NCBI GenBank assembly: GCA_965198005.1
Contig: CBDAOI010000004.1
Span: forward strand, 928,001 to 992,000
Length of the DNA stretch: 64,000 nt
Origin: Spirochaetia bacterium
Lineage (GTDB): Bacteria; Spirochaetota; Spirochaetia; SZUA-6; Bin103
Direction of reading: 5' to 3'
This document shows positions 423 to 64,000 of this stretch, piece by piece (the first letter of the stretch is position 1; the number at the start of each line of letters is the position of its first letter). The position numbers and the translations under genes are program-made. Under the pieces are notes generated by a model. It was not told where the DNA came from. It searched no databases and saw only the letters and a list, made by a program, of their open reading frames with translations.

Positions 423-1249
423 CCGGCATCGCCGGCAACAACGATCTGGCCGCGGACGGGGTGACGGTGCGCCTCGGCGGCCTGCCGGTGCTGCGATCGG
501 TGTCGGTCGGCGCCCGCGCCGGCGAGGTGACCGGGGTGATCGGTCCCAACGGCGCGGGCAAGAGCACGCTGCTGCGCGTGCTGGCCGGCGTCCTGCGCGT
601 CGACGCCGGCTGCGTGCGGCTGGGCGGCGTCGACCTGCAGGGCGTGCCGGCGAACGCCCGCGCACGGCGCGTGGCGTACCTGCCGCAGCAGGACGCGGTA
701 CAGCCGTTCACCGCGCTGGAGACGGTGCTGATGGGGCGCTATCCCTACCTGCGGCGGTTCCAACTGGAGGGTCGGCACGACCGGCGGATCGCGCGTGCGG
801 CGATGGCGCGCACCGAGACCGAGCGGTTTGCGCGGCGCAGCCTCGACCGGCTCTCGGGCGGCGAACGGCAGCGGGTGTTGCTGGCGCGCGCGCTGGCACA
901 GCAGGCGGAGGTGCTGGTGCTCGACGAGCCGCTCGCCAGTCTCGACCTGCGCTACCGATTGGCCGTGATGGCGACCTTGCGGCAGGAGGCAGCGCGCGGC
1001 GTCACGGTAGTCGTGGCGCTGCACGACGTGGAGCTGGCCGGCCGCTACTGCGACCGGCTGGTGCTGCTGGCCCAGGGGACGGTCGCCGGTTGCGGCACCC
1101 CCCTGGAGGTGCTGGTCCCCGACCAGTTGCGGGCGGTGTTCGGGGTGGAGGCGGTGGTCTCTCGGGAAGCGGCGACCGGCGGCCCGCGGATCTGGCTGGT
1201 GGGCCCGAGCGAGCGCGCCGGCGCGGAGGCTGGCGATGGCGCCGGTTGA
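419..1249 (+). CDS. ABC transporter ATP-binding protein (FecE/BtuD-like)
   Basis: Walker A GPNGAGKS, LSGGERQR signature, Walker B VLDEP, ALHD switch. Confidence 0.92.
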   Translation: MTGIAGNNDLAADGVTVRLGGLPVLRSVSVGARAGEVTGVIGPNGAGKSTLLRVLAGVLRVDAGCVRLGGVDLQGVPANARARRVAYLPQQDAVQPFTALETVLMGRYPYLRRFQLEGRHDRRIARAAMARTETERFARRSLDRLSGGERQRVLLARALAQQAEVLVLDEPLASLDLRYRLAVMATLRQEAARGVTVVVALHDVELAGRYCDRLVLLAQGTVAGCGTPLEVLVPDQLRAVFGVEAVVSREAATGGPRIWLVGPSERAGAEAGDGAG

Positions 1250-1421
1250 CCCGTGCGAGAGACCGCGCGCCGGACCGCACTGCACACTACCGCAATGGAC
1301 TCTCTTGAAAACCCGACCGACTCCTACGCGTCCTACGCGGCTTCCACGTGATGTTTTCGAGTATGTACGGTAAAGTGCGAGTCGCTTTCGGATGATCGCA
1401 CCAGATTCGTGAGGAGGTTTC

Positions 1422-1902
1422 ATGAGCCGAGAGAAGGACACGCGGAAGCCCGCCGAGAGCACAACCGCGACCGGCGAGACGTCCAGGGGATTCACGGACG
1501 AGGAACGAGCCGCGATGAGGGAACGTGCCCGAGAGTTGAAGGCGGAAGCGCGCGCGAACAAGAACAGGGAGGAAGGGGAAAGGGACGTACTCGCGAAGAT
1601 CGCCGAGATGCCGGAAACCGGATCGCGCCATGGCCGAGCGGCTCCATGCGATCATCAAAGCCAGCGCGCCAGCCCTTTCGCCGAAAACCTGGTACGGAAT
1701 GCCCGCGTATGCCAAGGGCGGCAAGGTCGTCTGCTTTTTCCAGAGCGCGCAGAAGTTCAACTTGAGGTACGCGACGTTCGGCTTCAACGACACGGCGAAC
1801 CTCGACGAAGGCGCCATGTGGCCGACCTCCTTCGGGCTGAAGGAGTTGACCGCCACCGAAGAGGCAAGGATCAGCGCGCTGGTGAAGCAAGCGGTGCGCT
1901 AA
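1422..1902 (+). pseudogene. DUF1801/YdhG-like protein, frameshifted near 1615
   Basis: N-half ([18 protein letters not shown]) and C-half ([12 protein letters not shown]...RYATFGF) join if one A is removed from gaaaccg; GAGGAGG RBS upstream. Could be a sequencing error. Confidence 0.75.
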
Positions 1903-3332
1903 CTCACTTCCCGTACTTCGATCGTGAAGTTGCTGCCGAAGTCCTCGTCGTAGGATACGACTTCGAGATAGAGCCAGTCGCCGGAGAAGCTCTCGATCAG
2001 CGCTGACTTGTATTCGTTGCCGTTCATGTAGCCGGCCGAGGCCAGCTTCCTGCCATGGATGCCGTCATCGTACACCAGGAAATGGAACCGCCAGGTGCCG
2101 CGGACTTCCTCCTGGGTCACCTTGATCAAGTACATCGTTCCCGCAACTACGGGGATCTTGTAGTAGCTGTTTCCTTCGGCCTGCACCTGGCCAGCGTAGC
2201 TGGAGCCGGCTATGGTCAACGGGTCCCGTTCTTCACCCTCGTTGTCGAACAACTCCTCGATGACGTGGAGCTCGAAGTTGGCGCCCGATCCCTTGGTGTG
2301 ACTGCCATCCACGGAGAAGTAGAACCGCTCGCCGCCCGCCGTTACCGAGAGCACCTCATCCTCACCCCTGAGGTTGTCGGACGTGTCCTGAACGACGGCG
2401 AAATCGCCACTGTCGTCATGCGTGTACAGGTCGACGTCCAACGTCGGTGACAGGAGTTTGATAGTATAGGGACGACCGGGGGCAGACGCAAAGGAGTAAT
2501 AGCTCCTGCCGTCTCCCACCTCAGCCGCGATTTCCTCGCCGACCGGGACTTCGTACGGCGCTTCCTCCGAACCTTGATTCTGCAAGCGGTCGTGTTCTGC
2601 GACGGTCAGCGTAAACGGCGTTCCCGATGCACGATGGCGGCCGCGGACTTCGACGTAGAGGGCCTCGTTGGAGGCCACCAGAGTCACGAATTCGTCCTCC
2701 GTGTAGCGCTTGCTCGAGCGGGCCAGTTCGTCCTGGAATTGAGCGTCGGAATAGATGAACAGGTCGGCGTCCACCTGGAGCCCGTCGAGAGCGATTCGAT
2801 AGGTCGATCCGGCGGTCAGGTTGCCGAGCTCGTACAGGCTGGACCTGGTGCCCACCTGTCCCGCATAGGCAACCTCTCCATCGAGTCGGATCGGAGACAA
2901 CAGCGCGACTTCATCGACGTAGGTCTCACTCCTGGTCAGCAGCAGGTTGAATTCCGACTCCTTGAAGTCGTAGTTGTGGAGAACGAAGTACGCGGCTTCG
3001 GCTTTCGGCGTGAACAGTATCCGCTCGTCGTTGTGCTCGGCATTGGTCGACGAGGCGACGGAGTCCCGCAGGAAGGTGGCATCCGAGCCCTTGTAGTAGA
3101 GGTCGAGGTCGGCGGCGAGCCCGGTCAGGTCGATGCGGTATTCGACGCCCGCTTCCACTTCGGCCATGAAGTACTTGCGCTCGCGGTCGGCATCGGTTTT
3201 CCCGGAGTACTCCTGATCGACGGTCAGCACGATGGGGGCGGTCTTGTCATATCCTCGATTCGTGTCCTCGGCGTGGGCGAGAGTCGCGACCAGCGCACAG
3301 GCAATGAGAACGACAAGAGCTCGGTAGTTCAT
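1899..3332 (-). CDS. Secreted acidic protein with repeated pre-peptidase C-terminal (PPC)-like domains
   Basis: Signal peptide ([21 protein letters not shown]); repeated Y.I.L....D.DLY motifs; no catalytic domain seen. Confidence 0.7.
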
Positions 3333-3511
3333 GATCCCTCCAAGATACTGAATGTCACGCGTACGAACCGGTTGCGCTCGTCGCCGACGCGCCGCGCCCA
3401 GCCGTAACCGTAGAACAGGACGTCACCGGCAGCATCAGCCATCCCGCCGCGGCGCTCCATCAGGCCGCCCGGCGCAGTGGCTGGCGGCGGCCGTATCTAT
3501 CGTGCACGCGG

Positions 3512-46574: not shown

Positions 46575-48087
46575 TCAGGCCCTGGCGCCGGGGCGCACCG
46601 GCGCGGGCGGGGGTGCGGGGGCGGCATCGGCGGCCTGCGCGGCGGGGCGGGGCGCGCCGTTGTCCACCGCACCCGGCGGCGCTCCGTCCGCGTGCCGGGT
46701 GCTGCGGGCGCCCCGGGCGGGGCGGGGGAACCGCCGGCAGCCGGGCGAAGGTGCGGCGCAGCAGCAGATAGCCGAACGCGAAGGCGATCAGGTTGGCCGC
46801 GACGATCGCCAGCCACACGGCGACGATCGGGGCCGGCTGACCGGCCGTGCCCAGCCCGCGGGTCACCAGCAGCGCGGCGCCCAGCATGATGCCCACCCGC
46901 AGCGCGTACACGGCGAACCCGCGCCACGACTTGCCCATCGCCTGGAACGCGCTCACGATCACGAACAGCGCGCCTACCACCCCGTAGGTGAACGGCACCG
47001 TGATCAGGTAGGAGCGGCCGTAGGCGATCACCAGCGGGTCGGCGGTGAACACCTGCACGATCAGGCCGCGCACCGCGACCGCCCCCAGTCCCACCAGCGA
47101 CCCCAGCGCGAACGCGGCCAGCATGTTGGTCCGCCAGGAGAGGCGGGCACGGTCGAGCCGTCCGCCGCCGAGGTTCTGGCCGATCAGCGCCAGCGCCGCG
47201 ACCCCGAAGCCGATCGCCGGCAGGAACGAGAAGAACTCGATGCGGAAGCCGATCGACAGTCCCACCACCCCGGCTTCCAGGAACGTCAGCGCCACCAGCT
47301 TGTTGAGCACGGCCAGCCCGGCCGGGTTGAGCATGTTGGTGAGCGCGGCCGGAAACCCGATCTTCAGCACCTGCCGCACCGACCGCCAGCGCAGCACCAG
47401 GTTGCGGAACCGGAACCGCACCAGCATGTTGCGCACCTTGAGCAGGGTCACCCCCGCCACCACCAGCACCACCTGCGAGAGGATGGTGGCCACCGCGGCG
47501 CCGCGCACCCCCATCGCCGGCAGCCCCAGCTCGCCGAAGATCAGCAGCGGATCGAGAATGGCGTTGAGCGTGGTGGAGATCGCGAACAGCCAGGTGACGG
47601 TGGTGTTGTCGCCCTGCGAGTTGAAGCCGAAGATCACCGCGAAGAACACGAACACCAGCACCGACCCGCCGGTCACGATGGTGAAGTACTCCAGCGCCAG
47701 CGGCAGGATGTCGCCGGTGGCCCCGGTCAGGGTCAGCAGCGGCCGCCGGAACGCCAGCGCCATGGCGGTGAAGAACGCCGCCGCCAGGATGTTGAGCACG
47801 AACGACTGCCCCAGGATCCGCTCCGCCTCGGGCAGGTCGCGCCGCCCGATGCAGGTCGCCATCAGCACCCCCGAGCCCACGGTGATCCCGATGGTGAGCG
47901 AGATCATCACGAACAGGGTGATCTGCGACACCGTGACCGCCGCAATGGCTGCGTCCGAGATCCGGCTCACCCAGAACGCGTCCACCAACTGGTACAGCGT
48001 ATGGAAGAAGATCGACAGCATCACCGGCCACGCCAGTGACCAGCTCAGATGCCGTATCGAGCCGCCGGTGAGGTTGCGCCCGCGCAT
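46575..48087 (-). CDS. MATE efflux transporter; apparent frameshift in the Pro/Ala tail near 46720
   Basis: NAILDPLLIFG, GVRGAAVAT, many TM helices; plausible stop at 46575 in a shifted frame. Confidence 0.85.
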
Positions 48088-48231
48088 GGTGCGGAAAGCT
48101 ACTACACTTGCCCCCCCGCGGCTACGCCCAAGCGCCGACGTCGAGCCTCGGGGCGCCGTCCGGCGAGTCCCTCCACCGAGTTTCGTTCGACCGTGGCGCA
48201 GTCGCTCGGGCGCGCGTCGGGATGTCGGGCC

Positions 48232-49113
48232 CTATCGAAATCGAAGCTCCTTCCCGTTATAGGTAGCCGTGACTCCCTGGCACGTGTAGTCGAGCAGCAG
48301 TCGGTTGGCAAAGGAATCTTCCAAGCGGAGCTGCCCACTCGAGAACCCCGTTGGGCAGGTGTAGCCGAGGGTCTGCCGAAGATCCCGCGATGCTACCGCA
48401 ACGTCGTAGGTCCTGCTACCAACCGTATACTTCAACCGCGTGCCCGAGTGAAAGCGGTATTCTCTCGGGTAAGGGGAATCTGTCTTGAAGGAATGGCCGC
48501 CGGCCCACTGCAGGCGATACTTCTGCTCCCCGGACACGGATAGTCTGCTGTCGTAGTCGACGGCAACCACCTGAAACCCACTGTCAATCGTGTACACCTC
48601 CTCGAAGGAGTCGGATTGCACTACCGGCTGGCCGACGACCGTCCACGTTCGGCTGCCCGCGAACGTGCCGGCTGAGTCCGGATCACTGTCGTCATGATCC
48701 CAGTACGACCTCTCGTATACCACAGTTACGTTGGAGTTGCTACATTCGCCCCGCTCTGAGCCGTCAACTGGAAATGTATCCCCATCGGCATTGGTCAAAT
48801 CCCCCGTCACTGTAGCTGCGGGGCAATTGACGAGGGACCGGTCAGGGGCAGAATCGAGGAGCAGAAGCAGATTGAAGAGACCGAACGCAGGCGCAAGCAA
48901 CCGAGACGTTCTGGACTCTGACTCCGATTCCGGATCATTCATGACCAACACCAAGTCCCGGGCCACGGCCTCGGTCATCGGAAGGTCGGACGGCGTTTCA
49001 TCGGACGCTACGGTTCCATTCCCCATTCCCATGTCCGGGCAACCCGCCAGGAGCAGGGCGATAATACACAGCACAACCCCGGCGTACGGGATTGGTCGAA
49101 TCCCCATCAACAT
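48232..49113 (-). CDS. Hypothetical lipoprotein
   Basis: Lipobox LLAGC, acidic beta-rich body, lower GC than its neighbours. Confidence 0.6.
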   Translation of the reverse strand: MLMGIRPIPYAGVVLCIIALLLAGCPDMGMGNGTVASDETPSDLPMTEAVARDLVLVMNDPESESESRTSRLLAPAFGLFNLLLLLDSAPDRSLVNCPAATVTGDLTNADGDTFPVDGSERGECSNSNVTVVYERSYWDHDDSDPDSAGTFAGSRTWTVVGQPVVQSDSFEEVYTIDSGFQVVAVDYDSRLSVSGEQKYRLQWAGGHSFKTDSPYPREYRFHSGTRLKYTVGSRTYDVAVASRDLRQTLGYTCPTGFSSGQLRLEDSFANRLLLDYTCQGVTATYNGKELRFR

Positions 49114-49476
49114 ATGAACATAATACATAATACCGCATAGCAATAGTCTGCACATGACGGTCAAGAAAGTCAAGTGGGGGCGGTCTTGCTGTATGTGAGC
49201 CGATAGACCGCTACCTGAACCGAGGAACATAACCGACGACACGGGTACGGGCATGGGGCACCCTCTCGAACAGTTCGCGCTGGGCGACCAACCGTTTGAA
49301 CGGACGCCGCACATGCGACCAACACCCCACGTGCCAAAGACTGCACGGGCGGTCGTATGCATCGTAGCCGTCGGTCTGCACGTAGCCCTGGTAGTCGCCG
49401 ATGATCTCGGTAGCTACGCACCCGCCGCGGCCCGGCTCATACCGGTACCGGCGCGCGGCACGGTGCTCGGACTGGT

Positions 49477-49636
49477 CTCATTACCCCTCATGGGGATCGA
49501 AAACGCCCGCCACCGACGCGCTCGGGCCGGTGCTGCGCGACCGCTCATTACCCCTCATGGGGATCGAAAACCGCTGGAGCCGGAGGTGCTCCGGCGCTAC
49601 CTGGCGCGCTCATTACCCCTCATGGGGATCGAAAAC
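49477..49636 (-). CRISPR. Orphan mini CRISPR array: 3 identical 28-bp repeats, 2 spacers (39 and 37 bp)
   Basis: CTCATTACCCCTCATGGGGATCGAAAAC at 49477, 49544 and 49609; internal CCCC/GGGG hairpin; orientation inferred from a leader-like stretch on the right. Confidence 0.85.
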
Positions 49637-49859
49637 CCCCCTATCTCAGCGACAGACTTGCCGTTTCGTGGCACTTGTGGCGGTGCCCGACAACTGCACG
49701 ATACCGCGGGAGATACCCTTCACTCCTATTTGTGCGCTTGAGCCACGGGCGAGCAGGGGTTTTCTGCTCCGGCGCTGGGTGGTCTCAGACGAGTGAACAG
49801 TTCTTCCCATGCCAACTGTCGGCCTGCTGACTCATCTGACCGCCAAGCAGCTCCTTGCT

Positions 49860-50050
49860 GAGTCTGGCTACCTCCACGTTGTGACGGTTCCTGCATACGA
49901 GCTTAAGAATCTTGTCTTCAGGTCCTCCTCGGCGAACCACAGCAGCCCCTGGTCGCGTTCATACTCCCGCTCACTGGACTGGTCGGTGTTGCTCAGCAGC
50001 GCCACGGTGCCCTGCTCGGCTGACAGGGGGATGTCGCCGGAGCCCTCCAT
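49860..50050 (-). pseudogene. Module G: short remnant of the haemagglutinin-like scaffold
   Basis: LSAEQGTVALLSNTDQSSEREYERDQGLLWF matches modules A, B and F. Confidence 0.8.
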
Positions 50051-50268
50051 ATGTACGGCAGTCAGGCGGCGGTGAGCAGGGCATTTCCCGGCTCGAAGCC
50101 CCCGTCTGTGCCCTCCTGCGCCTCGCCGAGTTCAGCCTCCATTCCCGCGGCGACTATGGCGCGTGCCAGCTCAGCACACAATCGGATCCTCGACACTTTC
50201 GTTTCTGTTCACCGTGCTGCTACAAGTCTACGACTGATTCTACGTGAAGTACTCTCTCCCGTTCGAGC

Positions 50269-50679
50269 CTAACCCCATAACTGTTTCATTCTGTTTCTAG
50301 TGATCTTCTTGAGCTCGAGATGGGTCTCTGCCAAGTTATCAGGCATGAATACTCTCCTAATGTCTGCAATCAGGTCTCTAATGAATTGAATATTGTCAAG
50401 GTCAAGAAATGACCGGAAATCATCCTCCGACGTTAGGAAATGACGAACGATTTCGATGGAGTACCAGCCCAACTTCTTTCGTCGGTCTTCATACGATTTG
50501 AAGTCACAGAAAAGTTGCTCCCGATCCCTTACTAATCGAATCATAACGATCTCGTCAGTGAGTACTATGAGTCCATTACCGCCGAAGGATCTGGAGTGTC
50601 TCGAGTCGACAATCCTAAACTCATGGTCTTTGTAAAGGAAAGACAAATGCTCCAATAGCAATCTAAGGATCTGATCCAC
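50269..50679 (-). CDS. Putative immunity protein F
   Basis: AT-rich 136-aa ORF starting 1 nt after the toxin F terminal stop. Confidence 0.72.
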   Translation of the reverse strand: MDQILRLLLEHLSFLYKDHEFRIVDSRHSRSFGGNGLIVLTDEIVMIRLVRDREQLFCDFKSYEDRRKKLGWYSIEIVRHFLTSEDDFRSFLDLDNIQFIRDLIADIRRVFMPDNLAETHLELKKITRNRMKQLWG

Positions 50680-50680
50680 T

Positions 50681-53600
50681 TCAGTATTCCTCCCTTGCTC
50701 GCAACGTCCACTGGTTTACCCACACGTAGCCGCGGTGATTGATCAGATACTCTACTTCTCTATGCAGCCAAGAATCCCCACGAATTCTATCTTTCGGCGT
50801 CGAGAGAAGAATCTGGTCACCTCTGTCAGCTATAGTATCGAGGAAGTGACGGTTCGCAGCCCATCGCTGTTCATCGTTTAGCTCATCCCAGGCACTGCCG
50901 ATATCAAAATAGCTCGCCCCTCAATCTATACCCGTCTCAATGTAGCCTGGATAACTACCTAACACCGCAGTGCCACTGCCTGTCAAGTGTGACTCGGACA
51001 GACCTACAATATGTTGAGGTAGTGTCGAGGCCGTTGGTGTGTGCGACGATGACTGAGCTTGTAACTCTCTGAAGGCTGCGACGGTAGCTTCCGGAATATA
51101 GAGCGAGACGATCCGCCCTGCTCCTCTCAATTGGTCACGTGTATGTGGATCGAGTTCGTTCCAATGCCTCCTGATCGGTTCGCCAGTAACTTCGTCGATA
51201 TACGTAACTACCGAATCGATTGTTCCTCCGGCCGCGGCAAGTATGCGAAGAACGTCTTGAGTGAGGTCCGAGTACTCGTCAGCAAACCACGATATGGCTG
51301 ACACAGCCTGTGCCGCCAGTGCTTGGCTCACGGGATTGTCGCCGCCGGCTTGCTCGATGCGGGTAACGAACTCGCGCATCGCAAGGGGGACCTCTGCGCC
51401 AAACCAGCGCGCCGTGGCGGCAGCGTAAGAGGCGATCGCTTGGCTCAGGGGATCGTTGCTCGCACCCATCTCGGCTAAACCCGCAAGAATGTTGCCTTGT
51501 CCTCGTTGGTAAGCTCTGATCACGAGGACGATGCGGAAGACGTTGTTCTCGGCGGCAGCGGCGCCGGCCTGGGCCGCGAGCTCCGCCTGACCGCCGGCTA
51601 CGCCCACTACAAGGCCGCTCGCCAAGCGCGCGAGATCCACACCGGCAGCTTTCATGGCGTCGAGTTGCTGGAATAGTTCGCCGAACGATAAAGTTCCGGC
51701 TTCGGCATCCTCTATCCATTTGATGATCCGCTGGCGGTAGAGGAGTGCGGTGGCTTCGCCGATGACGGCGCCGGCGGCGGCGGAGGGGCAGTCGTCGGCG
51801 GCGAGCAGGCCGGTGGCGCAGCCGAGGGCGGCGTGGGCGATCAACTGGCCGGCGGTGTCGAGGTCGCCGTTGTCGACTGCGGCGCCGATCTCCTGGGCGA
51901 GGTTCTCGCCGAGCACGCCGGCGGCCTCGGCCCGCAGCGACGACAGCAGCGCGTCGACCAGCGCTTCGCCTTCGATCAGGGTCGACACGCCGGTGTCCAC
52001 CGCGGTGCTGATCAGACTCTGCTGCAGGTCCTCCGCCACCCGCTCCGCCAGCGGCGCGGTGCTCACCAGCTCGCCACCCAGCCCTGCCGCCGCCGTCAGC
52101 CCGGTGGTCAGCCCCGCGGTCAGCATCGCCGTACCCAACGTGGTCAGGGTCTCCAGCGCGGCAAGCTGCTGCAGCGTCGCGCCGATGTCCCCCAGGTTGT
52201 TCACCAGCAGCACCGCGGCTCGGTTTACCAGCGAGGTAAGCCCCGCCTGGATCGCACCCTGCACCCCCGCCTGTAGCGCAACGTTGGCCCCCAGCGACAG
52301 CGCGTTGGTGATGCTCGCCGCCGCCCCCGAGAGCGCGCCGCCGGTGGCAACCCCCACGATCAGGCTCACCAGCGCCGCGCCGGTTGCCGTCAGCCCTTGC
52401 GACTCGTAGTCCCACTCCTCGAAGGCGGCATCGAGGCCGTTCCAGTCGACGTTCGGGTCGTCGCGCAGTTGCTGCATCCAGGCCAGCTCCGGGGACTGCA
52501 CCAACTGGTTGAGCGACTCCTGCTGACTGCCGACGCGTTCGTACTCCACCACCACGCCGTCGCCGGCGACGATGGTCAGTTCGCCGCCCTGCTCGATGGT
52601 TACGTGCTCGATGCTCTCTTCGTTGTGCCCCTGGTCCTCCTCGGTGAACCACAGCACACCCTGGTCGTGTTCGTACTCCTGCTCGCTGGACAGGTCGGTG
52701 TTGCTCAGCAACGCCACCGTGCCCTGCTCGGCGGACAGGAGGATGTCGCCGGCGCTGTCCAGCTGTACGGCGTCGAGGGTGAGGTCGCCGGTGGCGGCGT
52801 CGATGGTCAGGTCGCCGCCGGCGTCGATGGTGGTGGGGCGGGTGTCGAGTTCGGCGTCCAGCTCGTGGATGCTGGTGCTGGTGCCGAACAATCCCAGGAA
52901 CCCGCCGCTCTCGGTCTCCATCTGGTACTCGTCGTGCTGGAAGTCCTGGACCGACTCGATGGTGGTATCGCCCAACGCGAACAGGGTGGCGTCGGCGTCG
53001 GCGGTGAGCTCGGCCCCCTGCAGGGTGAGGTCGCCGCCGGCGAGCATGGTCAGATCGCCGCCGGCGTCGAGGGTCGCCAGTTGGTTGATCAGGGCGCTGC
53101 TGTGCTCGAACCCGCCGTCGAACTCGAATTCGTGCTCGCTGGCAAGCTGCAGTGCCAGGATGGAGATGTCGCCGCCGGCCAGCAGCGTCATCTCGTCACC
53201 CGCACCGAACAAGCCGCCGATCGACTGAATGAAGCTGTCTGCGTCCAGGTGCAGGCTGCCGCCGGCGGTGATCTGCGCCACCTGCAGCATCTGGTCGGCG
53301 AACCCGCCGTCGAACTCGATGCGCTCCGACAACGTCTCGTTGAGAATGGCCCCCGCCGCGATACCGACGTCGCCACCGCCGGCCACGATCCCGGACTGGT
53401 TGGCGAACAGGCCGCCGGCGCTGATGCCGATGTCGCCCTCCGAGAGCAGGCTGCCGCCGATGTTCAGCAGATCGCCGGTGCTGATGGCGAGCGCGTCGGT
53501 GCCGGCGATGAGGCCGGAGTTGATGACGTGGGCGGCGTTGATGATGGTGGTGCTGCCGGTGATGCTGGCGCTGCCGAGGTCGAGGCTGTCGAGGGTGGAG

Positions 53601-53770
53601 GAGGCCAGGTACAGGCGCGGCACCAGCACCTCCTGGCCGCCGACGGTGTGGCGCTCCAACCAGATGATGTTGCCGGACAGTGCGGCGATCTGGCTGGGGC
53701 TCAGGGCCACGCCGATGGTGAGCGCGAGGCTGCGGTAGGCATCGACGGCGTTGTCGTACAGCGCCTGCAT
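50681..53770 (-). pseudogene. Module F: orphan CdiA-like fragment (DUF637-like region, AAENN) with an unassigned toxin domain interrupted by TGA at 50921
   Basis: IIWLE...VLVPRLYL, WDY..QGLT, AAENN; the frame continues 79 sense codons past the TGA. Confidence 0.85.
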
Positions 53771-54114: not shown

Positions 54115-54260
54115 TTACTCGACGATGCGTATGAACCCCCGTTCAACTAATACGGCTACTCTCTTCGTGAATTGATACTGTATCCCCTCGCCCGCTTGTC
54201 CGAACCACGGAGCCGTTGTGCCCGCCTCGACCTCAAGCGGCTTCAGGATCTTGGTCCCAA
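54115..54260 (-). pseudogene. Module E: C-terminal end of a TNT-like (DUF4237) NAD+ glycohydrolase
   Basis: LKPLEVEAGTTAPWFGQAGEGIQY...LVERGFI. Confidence 0.75.
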
Positions 54261-54669
54261 AATGGACATCTGGTCTGATCCGTCGTATTCGCCCCAAGTT
54301 GTTTGATATCGATGTAAAGGAGTTTCCGATCCCGTCATTTGTAGAGAAGAATGAATGGAACCGGATGTTCCCGACGTGGCGCCACCGAAATCCAGAAGTG
54401 CACGTTGAACCGAGTGACCTCATAAGCTTCGGCACGTGACCTTGCAACGTCCAATCGAGGACGGCCACGCGAGACCAACCTGAGATCCAGTTACAGAGAA
54501 GAGCGTTCGACGACGTATCTGAGTATAACGTCTCAATTCCAGGGACCGCGGCGCAACGCCGGCGGCTGCTTTGGCGGGATTTATCCCCCCGCAATCGAAC
54601 GATCTCGGGAACTGGACTGAGGCACGGGTAAACGCGATGAGGAATACTCAGAGATCGAGCCCGCGTCGT

Positions 54670-55037
54670 GACGGTGAGGAACGCGGCCGCCAGGATGTTG
54701 AGCACGAACGACGGCCCCAGGATCCGCTCCGGCTCGGGCACGTCGCCCCGGCCGATGCTCATCGCCGTGAGCACCCCCGAGCGGACGGTGATCCCGATGG
54801 TGAGCCAGATCATCACGAACAGAGTGATCTGCGACACCGTGACCGCCCGGATGGCGGCATCCGAGATCCGGCTCACCCAGAACGCGTCCACCAACTTTCT
54901 GAAGCCGCTCTGCGGGGAAACCACCGCGGGCGACGTCGAGCCTCGGGGGGCGGCGGCTGGCGAGTGCCGCAAGCGCGTTTCGTTCGACCGTGGCGCAGTC
55001 GCTCGCGCGCGTCAGGATGTCGGGCCTATCGAAGCTC
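54670..55037. repeat. Diverged partial duplicate of the MATE 5' region and upstream spacer (47764-47990 and 48136-48249)
   Basis: LVDAFWVSRISDAAI.AVTVSQITLFVMI coding match plus non-coding match gtttcgttcgaccgtggcgcagtcgctcg. Confidence 0.9.
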
Positions 55038-55560
55038 TTTCCTTCCAGCGTCTTGCGGTTGGCTTGCAAGCTGTAGCCCAACTCATGCAAGAGCCGGTTC
55101 ACTGTCCGCTCGCTCACCGCATGACCTTGCGCCTGCCGTGCCGTCGCCAACCGCGCCGCGCTGCTGCAGTTCCACCGCAACGGTCCCACCGGATCCAGCG
55201 CAGGTCACCGGATCCACCAACCGCTGCAGGGCCTTATTGCTCCAAGTCTCGGGTCGTGCGCCGTCAACCGCTTGCGGTCCGCGCCACGCCGCCGCACCCG
55301 CCCGGGGTCGTCCTCCGCGGCTGACGCTTCATGCGCGGTGAGTTCTTGCACACCGGCGCGAGTGGTAGTGCGCGACATCCCGGTGGCGGCCGCCACACGC
55401 GCGATCCCATCCCGCCGTGCCCGATCCCGCGTGCTTCGACTGTCGCCCAGCGGCGGCGTAAGCGTTCGTCGAACAATGGATCAAGGGCTACGAACTTGGC
55501 CTTTACCGCTTCAGTGAGGGCGGCGTCCATTCGGACATCAGTATACCACTCACATCAATC
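55038..55560 (-). mobile_element. ISAzo13-family transposase, N-terminal remnant
   Basis: DERLRRRWA..EA..G.GG, PLRW, LLHELGYSLQANRKTLEG; frameshifted. Confidence 0.85.
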
Positions 55561-55587: not shown

Positions 55588-56058
55588 CTAAGCGATTCCC
55601 ATTTGGCGGTAAATATCTCGGACCTCCTGGTCGATCAGGGCAGCTCTGTCGGAGGATGACAGTGAGTTCCATTCCACGTGAGTTACGTTCTCAATCTCGC
55701 TAGCTACGGGAGGATAGACCGACAACCAGGATTTCATATTGCGAGACGAACACGCCGGGCACGTCGGCCACATAACTATATGTAACCTCCTGTCATCACG
55801 CGCACGATCACATGCACAACCGAATACTCCGTGAACGACGTCAGCTGTCTTACGATCATCTGTTGCGGCAAGCAATGGATGATTGTGAACAAGAGTTCTC
55901 ACTTCGTGAAATACATCACTTGTAAGCGCGTCCAAGTACATTTCCACACCCGTCTCGGTTCGCAACACAAACTGACCATAGCTCAGCTCAGGTACACCGG
56001 ATGCGATGAACTTGGCGCAACAATCAGCGCAAGTGAATCTGTACAGAATAGCACTCAT
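55588..56058 (-). CDS. Putative immunity protein D with CxxC pairs
   Basis: ATGA overlap with the restored toxin D stop; CADC and CPAC. Confidence 0.72.
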   Translation of the reverse strand: MSAILYRFTCADCCAKFIASGVPELSYGQFVLRTETGVEMYLDALTSDVFHEVRTLVHNHPLLAATDDRKTADVVHGVFGCACDRARDDRRLHIVMWPTCPACSSRNMKSWLSVYPPVASEIENVTHVEWNSLSSSDRAALIDQEVRDIYRQMGIA

Positions 56059-56970
56059 AGCGTCGGCACAACCATTTGAGGCGTGAGCAGTGCATCGAAG
56101 TTGGAGAGACCGCGTAGTTGGTTCCCGGTCCACGTACCGAAGGATACTTGATAACGTGGCATCCGGCCTCAGCAGCCATGCTACCAATCGCTCGGGTGGC
56201 TGCATCCGCTTCCCCTCCGGCGTAGCCCCATTGCCTGGCAACGGAAGGATCTGTGAGATCAAGGATCCTTGCGTTGGACAAGTCCAAGTCGTAGCGGATG
56301 GTATGAGTTCCCGAGGCACCATGGTGGGAAATTTCTCCGAGTGTCGTACCAGAGTCGTCAGACATGTAGAACGCTTTTCCGAATCGACTCTCCCTGGAAA
56401 AGAAATCCGGATCGATTCCTCCAAGCACCCCCTGTGCGTTTTCAGGACTCGTGACAGTGTGAAACGTTGAGGCGACGTTGTCAAGGCCCTTCTTGCGCAG
56501 GACCTTGGTGATTTCTTATACGATCTTCTTGGCGAGGACACTGCCGGGGATGACGTTGCCGGCCGTCAGTTCCAAACTGATGGAGATCGCAAGATCGGTG
56601 GCCAGCTCCGTAGCAAGCTCCTGGTCGCCGCTCATGGTGGCTTCGGCCAGCCGGCCACGATCCCGGACTGGTTGGCGAACAGGGCGCCGGCGATGACGCC
56701 GGAGTTGATCACGTGGGCGGCGTTGATGATGGTAGTGCTACCAGTGAATGCGGGCGCTGCCGAGGTCGCTGTCAAGGGTGGGGGACGCCAGGTAGCGGCG
56801 CGGCACCAGCACCTCCTGGCCGCCGACGGTGTGGCGCTCCAGCCAGATGATGTCGCCGGACAGGGTGGCGATCTGGCTGGGGCTCAGGGCCACGCCGATC
56901 GTGAGGGACAGGCTGCGGTAGGCCCGACGGCGTTGTCGTAGAGTGCCTGCATCAGACTGCGGTGGTCTTA
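56055..56970 (-). pseudogene. Module D: collapsed CdiA-like fragment with a RES-like toxin domain
   Basis: Scaffold piece, then the linker shared with module A (TAA at 56516), then SRFGKAFY, ILDLTDP, YPSVRG.G.NYA; frameshift near 56108. Confidence 0.75.
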
Positions 56971-58712: not shown

Positions 58713-61463
58713 CTACAACGGACTCGAAGGACCAAAGGCGGAGTCTGGAAGCCGTCCCACAGCGTAATACTGGATGCCCCCGCTGTTAGAGACGCCCCAC
58801 TGCGGCTGAGCACCTACCCGACCCATCTGAAGCGTAGTGCCCGGTGGAACAGTTACGGATTGGATTTGGGTCGGAACTTGCGGTAGCGCGAGACGCTGCT
58901 GAATTTGTGCGGGCGTCATTCCGACTACTTCATCCCGTCTAACAAGCCAGCCACCGCGAGGATTACTGTCTATGTGTACGCGAACGAAATCTAAGTCTGA
59001 GGCGGCTTCGAACTGTGTAACAACGGTCCCATGTGCAAACGGTGGTGACTGTCCTTGGGATACGAAGAAAGCGTTTGCGTCTGCTGCACTTATGTTTCTG
59101 ATGTCACGTATTTGGTTAGTCGGAATAGGGTTCGTGTGGAAGGACGTGGCAACTTCGGTGAGGCTATTCGAAGTCGTCGGTGTGTCTCCGACATCGGGGA
59201 GCTTGGCCGTGGGCTTGAGCGCTCTCAGGGTCTTAACGGATGCTCCAGGAATGAATAGGGATACGATTTGACTGCCGCCCTTCAGCCGGTCCTGGGTCTC
59301 AGGGTCAAGCTCGTTCCAGAGGCGCGATACGGTGCTCCCAGTGACTTCATCCAGAAATGTCACCGTGACGTCGATGGCAGCGCTGATCTCCTCCAAGTCG
59401 TCTAGGAGATCCGCGGTCGCCTGCGGGAACAGTGCGTAAGACAGGGTGACGGCTCCCTCGATTCCTGCCGATAGCGCTTTGCTCAAGGGATCTTCGCCGC
59501 GCCCGATCACACCTAGCGAGGCGCCGACGTTCTCGAGTACCACCTGCGCGAAGAACGCGGGGGCAATCACGGCGGTCGCCTGCATGCAGGCCAGGGTGCA
59601 GGCCTCGCCCGCGGCGATCAGCGCTGTGACGTGCTCGACTAATCTCTCCCGGAACTGGGCAACAACAGAGGAGAGCTCGTTGTATTGCGCAGCGTTCGCG
59701 CCTGCTTGCGCAGCCGCGTTCACGTCAAGCCCGGCCAACGCCGCGGTGAATCCGCTGGTCAGGCGCGCGATGTCCACGCCGGCAGCGAGCATTTGGTCGA
59801 GGTCCTGCAGGAATTCCTCCGGATCAACCTCTCCCGCAAGGACATCCTCCAACCGCTCGGTGGACCACTGCTCGATGTGCTCGGTGTAGATCATCGCGGT
59901 GGCTTCGCCGATGACGGCGCCGGCGGCGGCGGAGGGGCAGTCGTCGGCGGCGAGCAGGCCGGTGGCGCAGCCGAGGGCGGCGTGGGCGATCAACTGGCCG
60001 GCGGTGTCGAGGTCGCCGTTGTCGACTGCGGCGCCGATCTCCTGGGCGAGGTTCTCGCCGAGCACGCCGGCGGCCTCGGCGCGTAGCGAGGACAGCAGCG
60101 CGTCGCCCAGCTCTTCGCCTTCGATCAGGGTCGACACGCCGGTGTCCACCGCGGTGCTGATCAGACTCTGCTGCAGGTCCTCCGCCACCCGCTCCGCCAG
60201 CGGCGCGGTGCTCACCAGCTCGCCGCCCAGCCCTGCCGCCGCCGTCAGCCCGGTGGTCAGCCCCGCGGTCAGCATCGCCGTACCCAACGTGGTCAGGGTC
60301 TCCAGCGCGGCAAGCTGCTGCAGCGTCGCGCCGATGTCCCCCAGGTTGTTCACCAGCAGCACCGCGGCTCGGTTTACCAGCGAGGTAAGCCCCGCCTGGA
60401 TCGCACCCTGGACCCCCGCCTGTAGCGCAACGTTGGCCCCCAGCGACAGCGCGTTGGTGATGCTCGCGGCCGCCCCCGAGAGCGTGCCGCCGGTGGCCAC
60501 CCCCACGATCAGGCTCACCAGCGCCGCGCCGGTTGCCGTCAGCCCTTGCGACTCGTAGTCCCACTCCTCGAAGGCGGCATCGAGGCCGTTCCAGTCGACG
60601 CTCGGGTCGTCGCGCAGTTGCTGCATCCAGGCCAGCTCCGGGGACTGCACCAACCGGTCCAGCGACTCCTGCTGACTGCCGACGCGTTCGTACTCCACCA
60701 CCACGCCGTCGCCGGCGACGATGGTCAGTTCGCCCTCCTGCTCGATGGTTACGTGCTCGATGCTCTCTTCGTTGTGCCCCTGGTCCTCCTCGGTGAACCA
60801 CAGCAGCCCCTCGTCGCGCTCGAAGTCCCGCTCGACGGACTGGTCGGTGTTGCTGAGCAACGCCACCGTGCCCTGCTCGGCCGACAGCAGGATGTCGCCG
60901 GCGCTGTCCAGGCTTACCGTGTCGAGCGTGAGGTCGCCGCTGCCCGAGACGATGGTGAGGTCGCCGCCGGCGTCGATGGTGGTGCGTTGGGTGTCGAGTT
61001 CGAAGTCCAGTTCATGGGTGTTGGTGCCGGTGCGGAACATGCCCAGGAACCCGCCGCTCTCGGTCTGCATCTGGTATTCGTCGTGCTGGAAGTCCTGGAC
61101 CGACTCGATGGTGGTATCGCCCAACGCGAACAGGGTGGCGTCGGCGCCGGCGGTGAGCTCGGCCCCTTGCAGGGTGAGGTCGCCGCCGGCGAGCATGGTC
61201 AGATCGCCGCCGGCGTCGAGGGTCGCCAGTTGGTTGATCAGGGCGCTGCTGTGCTCGAACCCGCCGTCGAACTCGAAGTCGTGCTCGCTGGCAAGCTGCA
61301 GTGCCAGGATGGAGATGTCGCCGCCGGCCAGCAGCGTCATCTCGTCACCCGCACCGAACAAGCCGCCGATCGACTGAATGAAGCTGTCTGCGTCCAGGTG
61401 CAGGCTGCCGCCGGCGGTGATCTGGGCCACCTGCAGCATCTGGTCGGCGAACCCGCCGTCGAA
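58713..61463 (-). CDS. Module B: orphan CdiA-like fragment (AAQYN variant) with an intact C-terminal toxin-like domain
   Basis: Scaffold near-identical to F; tail GGWL...MTPAQIQQRLALP..P..V.VPPGT...G..GAQP...GGIQY. Confidence 0.85.
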   Translation of the reverse strand, partial: FDGGFADQMLQVAQITAGGSLHLDADSFIQSIGGLFGAGDEMTLLAGGDISILALQLASEHDFEFDGGFEHSSALINQLATLDAGGDLTMLAGGDLTLQGAELTAGADATLFALGDTTIESVQDFQHDEYQMQTESGGFLGMFRTGTNTHELDFELDTQRTTIDAGGDLTIVSGSGDLTLDTVSLDSAGDILLSAEQGTVALLSNTDQSVERDFERDEGLLWFTEEDQGHNEESIEHVTIEQEGELTIVAGDGVVVEYERVGSQQESLDRLVQSPELAWMQQLRDDPSVDWNGLDAAFEEWDYESQGLTATGAALVSLIVGVATGGTLSGAAASITNALSLGANVALQAGVQGAIQAGLTSLVNRAAVLLVNNLGDIGATLQQLAALETLTTLGTAMLTAGLTTGLTAAAGLGGELVSTAPLAERVAEDLQQSLISTAVDTGVSTLIEGEELGDALLSSLRAEAAGVLGENLAQEIGAAVDNGDLDTAGQLIAHAALGCATGLLAADDCPSAAAGAVIGEATAMIYTEHIEQWSTERLEDVLAGEVDPEEFLQDLDQMLAAGVDIARLTSGFTAALAGLDVNAAAQAGANAAQYNELSSVVAQFRERLVEHVTALIAAGEACTLACMQATAVIAPAFFAQVVLENVGASLGVIGRGEDPLSKALSAGIEGAVTLSYALFPQATADLLDDLEEISAAIDVTVTFLDEVTGSTVSRLWNELDPETQDRLKGGSQIVSLFIPGASVKTLRALKPTAKLPDVGDTPTTSNSLTEVATSFHTNPIPTNQIRDIRNISAADANAFFVSQGQSPPFAHGTVVTQFEAASDLDFVRVHIDSNPRGGWLVRRDEVVGMTPAQIQQRLALPQVPTQIQSVTVPPGTTLQMGRVGAQPQWGVSNSGGIQYYAVGRLPDSAFGPSSPL

Positions 61464-62060: not shown

Positions 62061-64000
62061 GGTATGGGAATTATCTCCAGATATTCTGGCGGGATTTCGT
62101 ACGGGAACTGGATCTCATAGCCGCCACCAGGCATCTGATAAACTCTCCCATCCCCGGTCGGTACAGTGCCCGAGACGCGCTTCGGAGCGGGAATCTCGTA
62201 GCCGGCTTGGCGTAAGCCATCAAGATCGATTCGTATCTTCATATTGGGCGCATCCCTGGTCGGCGGCAGAGCGAGCTCTAGTTGAGCCTGTAGCGGACTG
62301 AGATCACCTATAGGCGTGGCATACGTACCTCTGCGTAGTCCATCTTCCATTATACTATCACGCCATTTCGAAGACGTGTAGTGATACGCCGAGCTTGGGT
62401 CGGAGTGGGTTGCCACGTTTGTGAAGACGTCCGAAACGTCGTCAAGGCCCTTCTTCCGCAGGACCTTGGTGATCTTCTGAACGATCTTCTTGGCGAGGAC
62501 ACTGCCGGGGATGATGTTGCCGGCGGTCAGCTCCAGGCTGACCGAGATCGCAAGATCGGTGGCCAGCTCGGTAGCGAGCTCCTGGTCGCCACTCATTGTG
62601 GCTTCGGCCAGCTTGGCTGCGTCGTGTGCCAGCAGGGCCTTGTCGATTGCCTCCAGGGTTCCGATGAGGATCGGAATGAGGATGAAGACGTTGTTCTCGG
62701 CGGCGTTGGCGCCTGCCTGGGCAGCGACTTCGGCGTCGCCGCCGGCCAAGCCCACCGCAAAGCCGCTGGCCAGCCGCGCCAGATCGACACCAGCGTCCCT
62801 CATGTCCGCCAACTGGTCGGTGATCTCGTCTATCGAGAGGGTGCCCGTTTGGCCGTCGTCCAGCCAGCCGTCGATCTGCTGCTCGTAGAGGAGTGCGGTG
62901 GCTTCGCCGATGACGGCGCCGGCGGCGGCGGAGGGGCAGTCGTCGGCGGCGAGCAGGCCGGTGGCGCAGCCGAGGGCGGCGTGGGCGATCAACTGGCCGG
63001 CGGTGTCGAGGTCGCCGTTGTCGACTGCGGCGCCGATCTCCTGGGCGAGGTTCTCGCCGAGTACGCCGGCGGCCTCGGCGCGCAGCGAGGACAGCAGCGC
63101 GTCGCCCAGCTCTTCGCCTTCGATGAGGGTCGACACGCCGGTGTCGACGGCGGTGCCGATCAACCCCTGCTGCAGGTCCTCCGCCACCCGGTCCGCCAGC
63201 GGCGCCGTGCTCACCAGCTCGCCGCCCAGCCCCGCCGCCTCGGTCAGCCCGGTGGTCAGCCCTGCGGTCAGCATCGCCGTACCCAACGTGGTCAGGGTCT
63301 CCAGCGAGGCAAGCTGCTGCAGCGTCGCGCCGATGTCCCCCAGGTTGTTCACCAGCAGTACGGCAGCTCGGTTTACCAGCGAGGTAAGCCCTGCCTGGAT
63401 CGCACTCTGCACCCCCGCCTGTAGCGCAACGTTGGCCCCCAGCGACAGCGCGTTGGTGATGCTTGCCGCCGCCCCCGAGAGCGTGCCGCCGGTGGCCACC
63501 CCCACGATCAGGCTGACCAGCGCCGCGCCGGTCGGGGTGAGCCCCTGGGTCTGGTAGTCCCACTCTTCGAAGGCGGCATCAAGGCCGTTCCAGTCGACGT
63601 TCGGGTCGTCCCGCAGTTGCTGCATCCACGCCAGCTCGGGGGTCTGCACCAACTGGTCCAGCGACTCCTGCTGACTGCCGACGCGTTCGTACTCCACCAC
63701 CACGCCGTCGCCGGCGACGATGGTCAGCTCGCCGCCCTGCTCGATGGTTACGTGCTCGATGCTCTCTTCGTTGTGCCCCTGGTCCTCCTCGGTGAACCAC
63801 AGCACACCCTGGTCGTGTTCGTACTCCTGCTCGCTGGACTGGTCGGTGTTGCTCAGCAGCGCCACCGTGCCCTGCTCGGCGGACAGGAGGATGTCGCCGC
63901 CGCTGCCCAGATCCACCGCGTCAAGGGTGAGGTCGCCGGTGCCTGAGGCGATGGTGAGGTCGCCGCCGGCGCTGATGGTGGTGGCAAGGGTATCGAGCTC
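62057..64000 (-). CDS. Module A: CdiA-like protein (runs off the window) with a HYD1-like ADP-ribosyltransferase tail
   Basis: Scaffold plus AAENN; tail YHYT...YAT...LALP...GGGYE. Confidence 0.85.
   Translation of the reverse strand, partial: ELDTLATTISAGGDLTIASGTGDLTLDAVDLGSGGDILLSAEQGTVALLSNTDQSSEQEYEHDQGVLWFTEEDQGHNEESIEHVTIEQGGELTIVAGDGVVVEYERVGSQQESLDQLVQTPELAWMQQLRDDPNVDWNGLDAAFEEWDYQTQGLTPTGAALVSLIVGVATGGTLSGAAASITNALSLGANVALQAGVQSAIQAGLTSLVNRAAVLLVNNLGDIGATLQQLASLETLTTLGTAMLTAGLTTGLTEAAGLGGELVSTAPLADRVAEDLQQGLIGTAVDTGVSTLIEGEELGDALLSSLRAEAAGVLGENLAQEIGAAVDNGDLDTAGQLIAHAALGCATGLLAADDCPSAAAGAVIGEATALLYEQQIDGWLDDGQTGTLSIDEITDQLADMRDAGVDLARLASGFAVGLAGGDAEVAAQAGANAAENNVFILIPILIGTLEAIDKALLAHDAAKLAEATMSGDQELATELATDLAISVSLELTAGNIIPGSVLAKKIVQKITKVLRKKGLDDVSDVFTNVATHSDPSSAYHYTSSKWRDSIMEDGLRRGTYATPIGDLSPLQAQLELALPPTRDAPNMKIRIDLDGLRQAGYEIPAPKRVSGTVPTGDGRVYQMPGGGYEIQFPYEIPPEYLEIIPIP

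Follow-up and report, generated by a model that had tools for sequence, protein, structure and literature searches.

What is a three-repeat CRISPR array doing at the foot of a toxin gene array, with no cas gene recognised beside it? The question was raised by a 64,000-nucleotide (nt) stretch of a Spirochaetia bacterium (GenBank assembly GCA_965198005.1, contig CBDAOI010000004.1, positions 928,001 to 992,000 of the forward strand), which is referred to as the window and numbered from its first letter. A preliminary description, made from the letters alone, had reported three perfect 28-bp repeats on the minus strand, spacers of 37 and 39 nt and a leader-like stretch to their right, and had considered a satellite array, a regulatory or self-targeting mini-array, and cargo carried with the toxin island. 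The analysis described here indicates that the mini-array is probably what is left, next to the leader, of a type I-D CRISPR-Cas locus, and an inert relic in the genome as assembled.

An array attached to its leader and to the end of cas2

The 28-nt repeat is present in three exact copies, separated by two spacers that are unrelated to each other (Table 1). Both the perfect repeats and the spacer lengths of the preliminary description were borne out, the latter by start-to-start distances of 67 and 65 nt, the former by the exact copies and by a control in which none of 100 dinucleotide-preserving shuffles produced a match to the repeat at three or fewer mismatches. The locus therefore has the identical direct repeats (23-47 nt) and unique spacers of similar length by which a CRISPR array is recognised, and the repeat boundaries are correct, as the conserved unit in the arrays of relatives comprises exactly these 28 positions. 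The repeat folds into a small hairpin with 7 unpaired nt after it. Its stability is no greater than that of shuffled sequences (z -1.06), so folding alone leaves the strand unfixed, and we assigned the strand from the direction of the cas operon in relatives. An Rfam search of 48000-51500 (E up to 1) found no CRISPR-DR or other family, and a simple promoter and terminator scan of 49300-50300, which used the sigma-70 consensus only, found nothing.

Directly upstream of the array and its leader lie the last 45 codons and the stop codon of a cas2 gene. Nine proteins of a related genome, G011 (eight Cas proteins and a WYL regulator), were used as tblastn queries against the whole genome to which the window belongs (G000). 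Residues 171-221 of the G011 Cas2 matched 49788-49940 on the minus strand, with 72.5% identity over 51 amino acids (E 7e-18), and this was the only match of any of the nine queries with E below 0.6. The rest of the cas operon is missing from the window altogether, as is the 5' half of cas2. The preliminary description, which had recognised no cas gene in the 64 kb, overlooked this 3' end.

The nucleotide alignment with G011 and with G022, a second genome of the same family, is continuous from the cas2 remnant through the stop codon and the intergenic stretch to repeat 1. Because it is unbroken, 49637-49784 can be identified as the leader; what had been called leader-like is a true leader by homology. 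The cas2-plus-leader segment shares about 75% of its letters with G011 and G022 over 169-197 nt, and 68-73% with loci of other phyla over 107-139 nt. The leader retains two GCGC-containing motifs that are found after the cas2 stop in nine other genomes, one locus (Dehalococcoidia), represented by only 110 nt of upstream DNA, having been left out of the alignment. In the window (49725-49775, minus strand) and in the nine other leaders, these motifs form two inverted arms about 35 nt apart, just past the cas2 stop. The inner positions of the arms show apparently compensating changes, and RNAalifold pairs eight positions across the 10 aligned leaders; the paired arms could be a terminator-like hairpin or a site bound by a regulator.

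To place the repeat, we searched 100 related genomes with up to three mismatches allowed. It occurs in three of 13 sister-genus genomes, with 57 copies in G011, 11 in G022 and one in G018 at 1-2 differences, and in none of 10 genomes of the window's own genus or 77 genomes of other families. The G011 and G022 arrays begin directly after cas1-cas2, on the strand that gives the GTTT...GAG reading of the repeat, and the relatives' spacers measure 35-49 nt, mostly 36-40. The operon order shared by these two genomes is cas6d-cas10d-cas7d-cas5d-cas3'-cas4-cas1-cas2-leader-array. In G011, Pfam models recognise cas6-(1036 aa)-csc2-(220 aa)-DEAD helicase-cas4-cas1-cas2, where aa denotes amino acids, and a gene for a WYL-HTH regulator adjoins the operon. 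NCBIfam gave sub-threshold type I-D matches only (cas3_cyano and cas_Csc2). Judged by the PADLOC matches collected in Table 1, the G011 operon is type I-D throughout. Cas10d was found in only two of 24 genomes from the family, those of G011 and G022, and not in G000.

Table 1. The CRISPR remnant and its surroundings in window coordinates, with the Cas proteins assigned in the G011 operon
Feature	Position	Strand	Evidence
cas2 3' remnant, last 45 codons plus stop (49785-49787)	49785..49922	-	tblastn, nucleotide alignment, breakpoint mapping
CRISPR leader, 148 nt	49637..49784	-	homology to relatives' leaders
Repeat 1, leader-proximal, 28 nt, perfect	49609..49636	-	exact match, relatives' arrays
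Spacer 1 (newest), 37 nt, no target found	49572..49608	-	target searches
Repeat 2, 28 nt, perfect	49544..49571	-	exact match, relatives' arrays
Spacer 2, 39 nt, no target found	49505..49543	-	target searches
Repeat 3, 28 nt, perfect, non-degenerate, last before array cut	49477..49504	-	exact match, relatives' arrays
29 nt between repeat 3 and IS66 scrap	49448..49476	-	assembly sequence
IS66-family transposase gene scrap	49244..49447	-	NF033517, PF03050, match to genomic copy
139-nt internal scrap of repeated CdiA-like gene segment	49921..50059	-	86-92% identity to three paralogous places
Low-GC 136-codon open reading frame, no family match, downstream of CdiA-like module	50269..50679	-	open reading frame
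CdiA-like toxin module, DUF637 + hemagglutinin repeat	50921..53770	-	domain matches
Cas10d	G011 operon		PADLOC E 2e-232
Cas3d	G011 operon		PADLOC E 6e-117
Cas6d	G011 operon		PADLOC E 6e-69
Cas5d	G011 operon		PADLOC E 3e-56
Cas4d	G011 operon		PADLOC E 1e-40
Cas7d	G011 operon		PADLOC E 2e-11

A second, cross-taxon scan used exact matching with two repeat positions degenerate and one genome per species. The repeat was located in 11 stretches of 10 metagenome-assembled genome (MAG) records, in arrays of 10-101 repeats with 0-2 differences. The record titles name Dehalococcoidia, Candidatus Entotheonella, Versatilivoraceae, Vicinamibacterales (three records), Latescibacterota, Bryobacterales and Spirochaetia (two, namely G011 and G022). 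The variant of the window, with T at position 5, is never the main form in these 10 records, and the 359 spacers of 10 related arrays share no 20-mer across genomes and none with the window spacers. The distribution of the repeat suggests that a type I-D module with one 28-nt repeat may move between phyla, and its occurrence in genomes labelled with so many phyla may deserve separate study.

Two of the related genomes show further irregularities. In the G022 array (L006 2127-2735), 609 nt of lower-GC DNA, which may be an insertion, lie between two repeats and are followed by one normal repeat and a degenerate last repeat. The solitary repeat of G018 (L017 9987-10014) carries two differences; we considered it as a clue to the window locus and set it aside as uninformative, since no cas remnant lies within 10 kb on either side.

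Junctions with gene scraps on both sides

The preliminary description had called the neighbouring DNA decaying, and both flanks are indeed scraps of genes. Upstream, a base-by-base comparison showed that the match to toxin genes stops at 49921 and that to cas2 starts at 49922; two letters fit both sides, and the cas2 remnant is therefore 45 codons plus the stop. The toxin-gene scrap resembles 52633-52771, 60782-60910 and 63781-63899, three paralogous places that lie inside the three CdiA-like modules of the window. Downstream, the array ends after repeat 3, about 29 nt short of the scrap of an insertion sequence (IS) transposase gene of the IS66 family. The scrap matches NF033517 with E 3.9e-13 (profile positions 189-240 of 387, under the full-length cut-off) and PF03050 with E 4.4e-12. 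Its counterpart elsewhere in the genome is an open frame of 530 codons (C4:2007428-2009017), of which residues 300-352 match the scrap and residues 505-516 do so weakly (E 0.017); as these are two separate parts of the frame, the scrap is internally deleted. The intervening 29 nt are possibly the stump of a third spacer. The terminal repeat of the G022 array is degenerate and repeat 3 of the window is perfect, which fits an array that was cut in its interior. These alignments show an illegitimate junction with a gene scrap at either end of the array.

The locus was also compared with contigs from four public runs (X1, X3, X5 and X8), which can show presence and never absence; X1 may be the source sample. 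X1 and X5, which belong to different studies, each contain a contig across 49875-50700 with 0 differences, so the junction between cas2 and the toxin scrap is real. Contigs of X1 cover repeat 3-spacer 2-repeat 2, repeat 2-spacer 1-repeat 1 and repeat 1-leader with 0, 0 and 2 differences, respectively, and X3 covers 49609-49719 with 0 differences.

Other contigs, in X1 (three records) and X3 (one record of 255 letters), match the window up to 49922 and then differ from it. Read by hand in the cas2 frame on the minus strand, the divergent letters give MVAKISEKIG before PEDK, where G011 has MVDKISRKIK. Because these residues continue cas2 in frame, a cas2 that is intact through the breakpoint exists in the same communities. 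Pieces stopping at 49922 differ from the window at 4 of 99 letters in X3 and 3 of 48 in X5. A degenerate cas2 pattern had no match in metagenome contigs of the Joint Genome Institute (JGI). Summed depths were 640-3370 in the repeat bins versus 2-7 in the unique flanks, and most contigs fitted two places of the stretch (497 of 533 in X1, 316 of 352 in X3 and 313 of 339 in X5), from which it follows that many spacers accompany this repeat in the three runs. Over 49449-49692, hundreds of contigs in X1, X3 and X5, which represent three studies, pair the repeat with other spacers. A living version of the locus thus appears, from these contigs, to be common in the same communities.

The stump lies in a strain-specific patchwork at a synteny break, as judged from congeners: in 10 of 10, similarity to the window ends at the start of a MatE gene (window 48089), and in G010, G009 and G007 the genes beyond this start match contig C3 of G000, not the window. 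Synteny with the G011 locus was considered and rejected, because the genes that flank that locus map elsewhere in G000. The 5' end of the MatE gene and its upstream DNA are duplicated 6.7 kb away (54659-54896 and 54931-55033 versus 47753-47990 and 48136-48239, 87-89% identity). This duplication explains an odd open reading frame (ORF) at 54115-54972, in which a TNT (tuberculosis necrotizing toxin) domain at the C terminus accompanies a MatE match. The CRISPR stump lies in the segment between the two copies, the second of which is inside the toxin array. Downstream of the stump and co-directional with it, a 376-codon ORF (48232-49362, minus strand) has a start resembling that of a lipoprotein, matches neither Pfam nor NCBIfam families, and is unconserved at the DNA level in the 10 congeners.

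The toxin array itself comprises the CdiA-like module of Table 1 and two more, at 58713-61439 and from 62057 to beyond 64000, each with DUF637 and hemagglutinin repeats; in the last of the three there is, in addition, a PT-VENN match (E 0.0011, just below the Pfam cut-off). Long stretches recur between the modules (1569 nt with 96% identity, 1317 nt with 90%), whose long 5' parts are near-identical and whose 3' ends differ; low-GC DNA follows each module, and the array continues past the end of the window. Interspersed with the modules are an ORF with a RES domain (56024-56428) and a scrap of an ISAZ013-type transposase (54581-55189). The low-GC ORF downstream of the first module is, from its position only, possibly the immunity gene of that module.

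Missing cas genes and spacers without targets

The G000 assembly measures 4.89 Mb in four contigs, with 66% G+C, and is 90.4% complete by marker genes. It contains no further copy of the repeat. The Pfam models Cas1, Cas2, Cas3_HD, RAMP, Cas6_C and Cas5d and the PADLOC models Cas10d, Cas6d, Cas5d and Cas3d gave 0 matches in it, and neither models nor tblastn with the G011 proteins located any of the type I-D signature genes cas10d, cas7d (csc2), cas5d (csc1), cas3' and cas6d. Of the adaptation genes cas1, cas2 and cas4, only the cas2 remnant is left, and no cognate cas operon was found elsewhere in the assembly. The genome was scanned for companion arrays by means of exact 18-mers in at least three copies, 40-110 nt apart, a search that is blind to arrays with two repeats or mutated repeats; nine other array-like loci were rejected, all being plain tandem repeats without unique spacers. 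The orphan status proposed earlier therefore stands for the assembled genome. The genome-wide search for the repeat and for cas loci that had been recommended as a check yielded nothing in G000 besides the cas2 stump, but both are present in relatives.

The spacers, for which the preliminary description had proposed searches of the host and of viruses and plasmids, returned chance-level or partial matches only. In the host genome the best were 17 exact letters, or 24 with two mismatches. No exact match to either spacer was found in IMG/VR, nor to spacer 1 in JGI metagenome contigs, and phage and plasmid records gave partial spacer matches only (21-65 nt, E 0.02 to 1). The stretch itself matched nothing among phages, plasmids or IMG/VR. 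Spacer matches in 346 kb of relatives' loci, two full type I-D operons among them, were no better than 17-19 nt. One spacer had also been read as coding DNA; this is literally so for the plus strand at 49572-49608, but an open frame of 12 codons carries no weight.

One match within the relatives' operons was followed further, in view of the type I-F orphan arrays of Escherichia coli whose spacers match type I-F cas genes (PMC8616872). Positions 3-19 of spacer 2 match cas10d of G022 at 17 of 17 letters. When the comparison is extended to all 39 nt, it holds at 25 positions (18 of the first 19, then 7 of 20). Spacer 2 in frame encodes PATDALGPVLRD, G022 and G011 keep SLR(D/N)PD(R/H)WPVLR, and the common part is only PVLR(D). 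A 17 of 17 chance match to spacer 2 is found in the host genome as well. We took the cas10d match as chance, given 25 of 39 positions and a non-homologous protein, and rejected an anti-cas spacer 2; the comparison used the Cas10d proteins of relatives, only 68% identical to each other, and not those of the lost operon.

Origin of the remnant and comparison with known systems

We infer the following course of events. A complete type I-D locus, running on the minus strand from cas6d through the array, would once have been present here or in donor DNA. One illegitimate joining, of mid-cas2 (49922) to the CdiA-like scrap of the adjacent toxin array, would have removed everything from cas6d through the first half of cas2, and a second event, near an IS66 copy, would have removed the older part of the array beyond the third repeat. 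The loss looks recent, because a closely similar intact cas2 persists in the same communities. Recent loss would also explain the three unmutated repeats (84 nt), which the preliminary description had taken as a sign of recent acquisition or use in trans: neither selection nor trans use is needed, and trans use, though possible, is unsupported. Lacking Cas6d, any transcript could not become CRISPR RNAs (crRNAs); lacking Cascade, Cas10d and Cas3', no interference would take place; and lacking Cas1, Cas2 and Cas4, the array could not grow. With all of these missing, the stump should be inert in this genome.

Several points weigh against this conclusion. A cas locus could sit on a missing piece or a plasmid, given the fragmentation and incompleteness of the assembly. 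The PADLOC Cas5d model matched no control genome, though it scored the G011 protein. No family model recognises so short a cas2 remnant, whose identity is therefore based on similarity to the Cas2 of G011 and G022. How repeat 3 is joined to the IS66 scrap is known from the assembly alone, as none of the listed public contigs bridges it. The contigs with intact cas2, 94-96% identical to the window where scorable, come from the same runs and might not all derive from other cells. One contig of 204 nt from X8, an RNA library, covers 49710-49914 with five differences and one gap and ends before the junction; X8 gave no cover over the array, and this single contig over the leader and the cas2 end is silent either way on transcription. 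Finally, perfect repeats and conserved leader motifs would also fit an array that is still usable.

This last point is the substance of an isolated array used in trans, in which a type I-D system in the same cell, outside the assembly or arriving by transfer, would use both spacers. The incompleteness of the genome, the intact-cas2 contigs and the hundreds of repeat-bearing contigs in the same runs all leave room for such a system, at least seven different higher taxa are named on MAGs whose type I-D loci use this repeat, and isolated arrays act in trans in Pseudomonas aeruginosa, according to the excerpted text of PMC13142298. We nevertheless consider it unlikely: the 4.89 Mb contain no cas gene and no second copy of the repeat, the simple scan showed no sigma-70-like promoter, and flanks made of a truncated cas2 and a transposase scrap are a signature of decay and not of a duplicated leader-array unit. 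Moreover, the letter differences of the X3 and X5 contigs assign at least those to other genomes. A related idea is that the stump is a dormant, re-armable immune memory, whose spacers an incoming type I-D operon could process and use at once and whose array it could extend. That is conceivable because leader and repeats match a family that MAGs labelled with at least seven higher taxa share in nearly identical form and that is abundant in the same communities, and if it were true, cas loss with retention of leader and array would be a reversible state in a community-wide immunity pool; we regard it as very unlikely.

The stump could instead have arrived already truncated, hitch-hiking on a mobile CdiA-like island or another transferred segment, without ever having belonged to a functional locus of its present lineage. 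The strain-specific patchwork agrees with such an arrival, as do the C3 matches beyond the MatE start in three congeners, the lack of the repeat or Cas10d in all 10 congeners, the direct fusion to a toxin-gene scrap and the different gene neighbourhood of the G011 locus. However, the cas2-plus-leader segment is closest to the two genomes of the same family, with lower identity over shorter stretches to other phyla, a closely similar intact cas2 occurs in the same communities, and no toxin island with such a stump was seen elsewhere, a point on which only the repeat searches bear. The cargo proposal of the preliminary description is thus possible but unsupported, and decidedly unlikely in our judgment; it concerns origin only, and would leave the verdict of an inert stump unchanged. 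A purposeful orphan array, either with spacers that target cognate cas genes and so block their re-acquisition, for which E. coli offers a precedent (excerpted in PMC8616872), or acting in self-targeting or regulation against the toxin island or the host, could draw on the 17-letter match inside G022 cas10d. It is highly improbable, given how few positions of that spacer match in full, the missing homology at the protein level, the similar chance match in the host, the failure of the relatives' loci and the host genome to offer a better match, and the need of either role for Cas proteins, none of which were found. The spacers match neither the host, the toxin island, the relatives' cas operons, phage, plasmid nor IMG/VR, and the array has kept its native leader and part of cas2, with an illegitimate junction at each end, so the satellite, regulatory and self-targeting suggestions were not upheld. 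Least credible is an ordinary long array collapsed to three repeats by assembly, which the preliminary description had named as a possible refutation. Identical repeats can collapse, and many arrays with this repeat occur in the same metagenomes, but collapse would neither truncate cas2 nor put toxin and transposase scraps at the ends; the cas2 junction is unchanged in contigs from two studies, and the repeat-spacer-repeat pairs are covered by X1 contigs.

A decayed type I-D locus is accordingly the annotation that we would favor, in place of a toxin-linked or regulatory array, and this genome should not be credited with a working defence system here. The locus offers a base-resolved example of how an orphan array may originate, with a junction within cas2 to a recombination-prone toxin array and a cut beside an IS scrap, and the apparently intact allele in the same communities means that gain and loss could be studied there.

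The closest known counterparts are type I-D loci such as CRISPR1 of Synechocystis sp. PCC 6803. According to the excerpted account in PMC10212523, Cas6d cuts the crRNA at the foot of the hairpin that the repeat forms, Cascade with Cas10d and also Cas3' are required for interference, and the Synechocystis crRNAs carry repeat-derived handles of 8 nt and 29 nt, i.e., a 37-nt repeat. As in such loci, the relatives' repeat follows an operon with Cas10d, Cas7d/Csc2, Cas5d/Csc1, Cas3', Cas6d, Cas4, Cas1 and Cas2, with a neighboring WYL regulator and spacers mostly of 36-40 nt, and the repeat hairpin with its 7 unpaired nt would fit a cut at the stem base that leaves a 5' handle of about 8 nt. In contrast, the repeat measures 28 nt and not the 37 nt given for Synechocystis in that excerpt, the relatives' gene order starts with cas6d and places cas3' after cas5d, and the window keeps no cas gene beyond the 45 codons of cas2.

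Orphan arrays left over when cas genes are lost have been described before (Shmakov et al. 2020, as cited in excerpts of PMC13142298 and PMC8616872). The window resembles these in having a true array in a genome without cas genes, flanked by products of decay; it differs, as far as those citations go, in that its origin is not argued statistically but from a cas2 stump, a native leader and both breakpoints at base resolution. The type I-F orphan (CRISPR4) arrays of E. coli, whose spacers match type I-F cas genes (Almendros et al. 2016, in the excerpts of PMC8616872), are likewise small arrays left after the loss of all cognate cas genes, but the window spacers match no cognate cas genes of relatives. 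The isolated CR3 arrays of P. aeruginosa, as excerpted from PMC13142298, share with the window a leader and array away from an intact cas operon. Their genomes keep a complete cognate system elsewhere and the arrays still acquire spacers, whereas here no cognate system was found, and truncation has left the array with two spacers. The mini-arrays of viruses and mobile elements, with one or two spacers and repeats identical to those of the full system (Faure et al. 2019, in the excerpts of PMC8616872), are comparably small. Those arrays, as presented there, reside in viruses or plasmids with hosts that possess the cognate system, unlike the window array, which is chromosomal, adjoins a cas2 stump and belongs to a genome without the system. 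Orphan arrays that arise from cas loss are a known class, and the window array is a well-resolved type I-D instance of it, with a 28-nt repeat, and no new kind.

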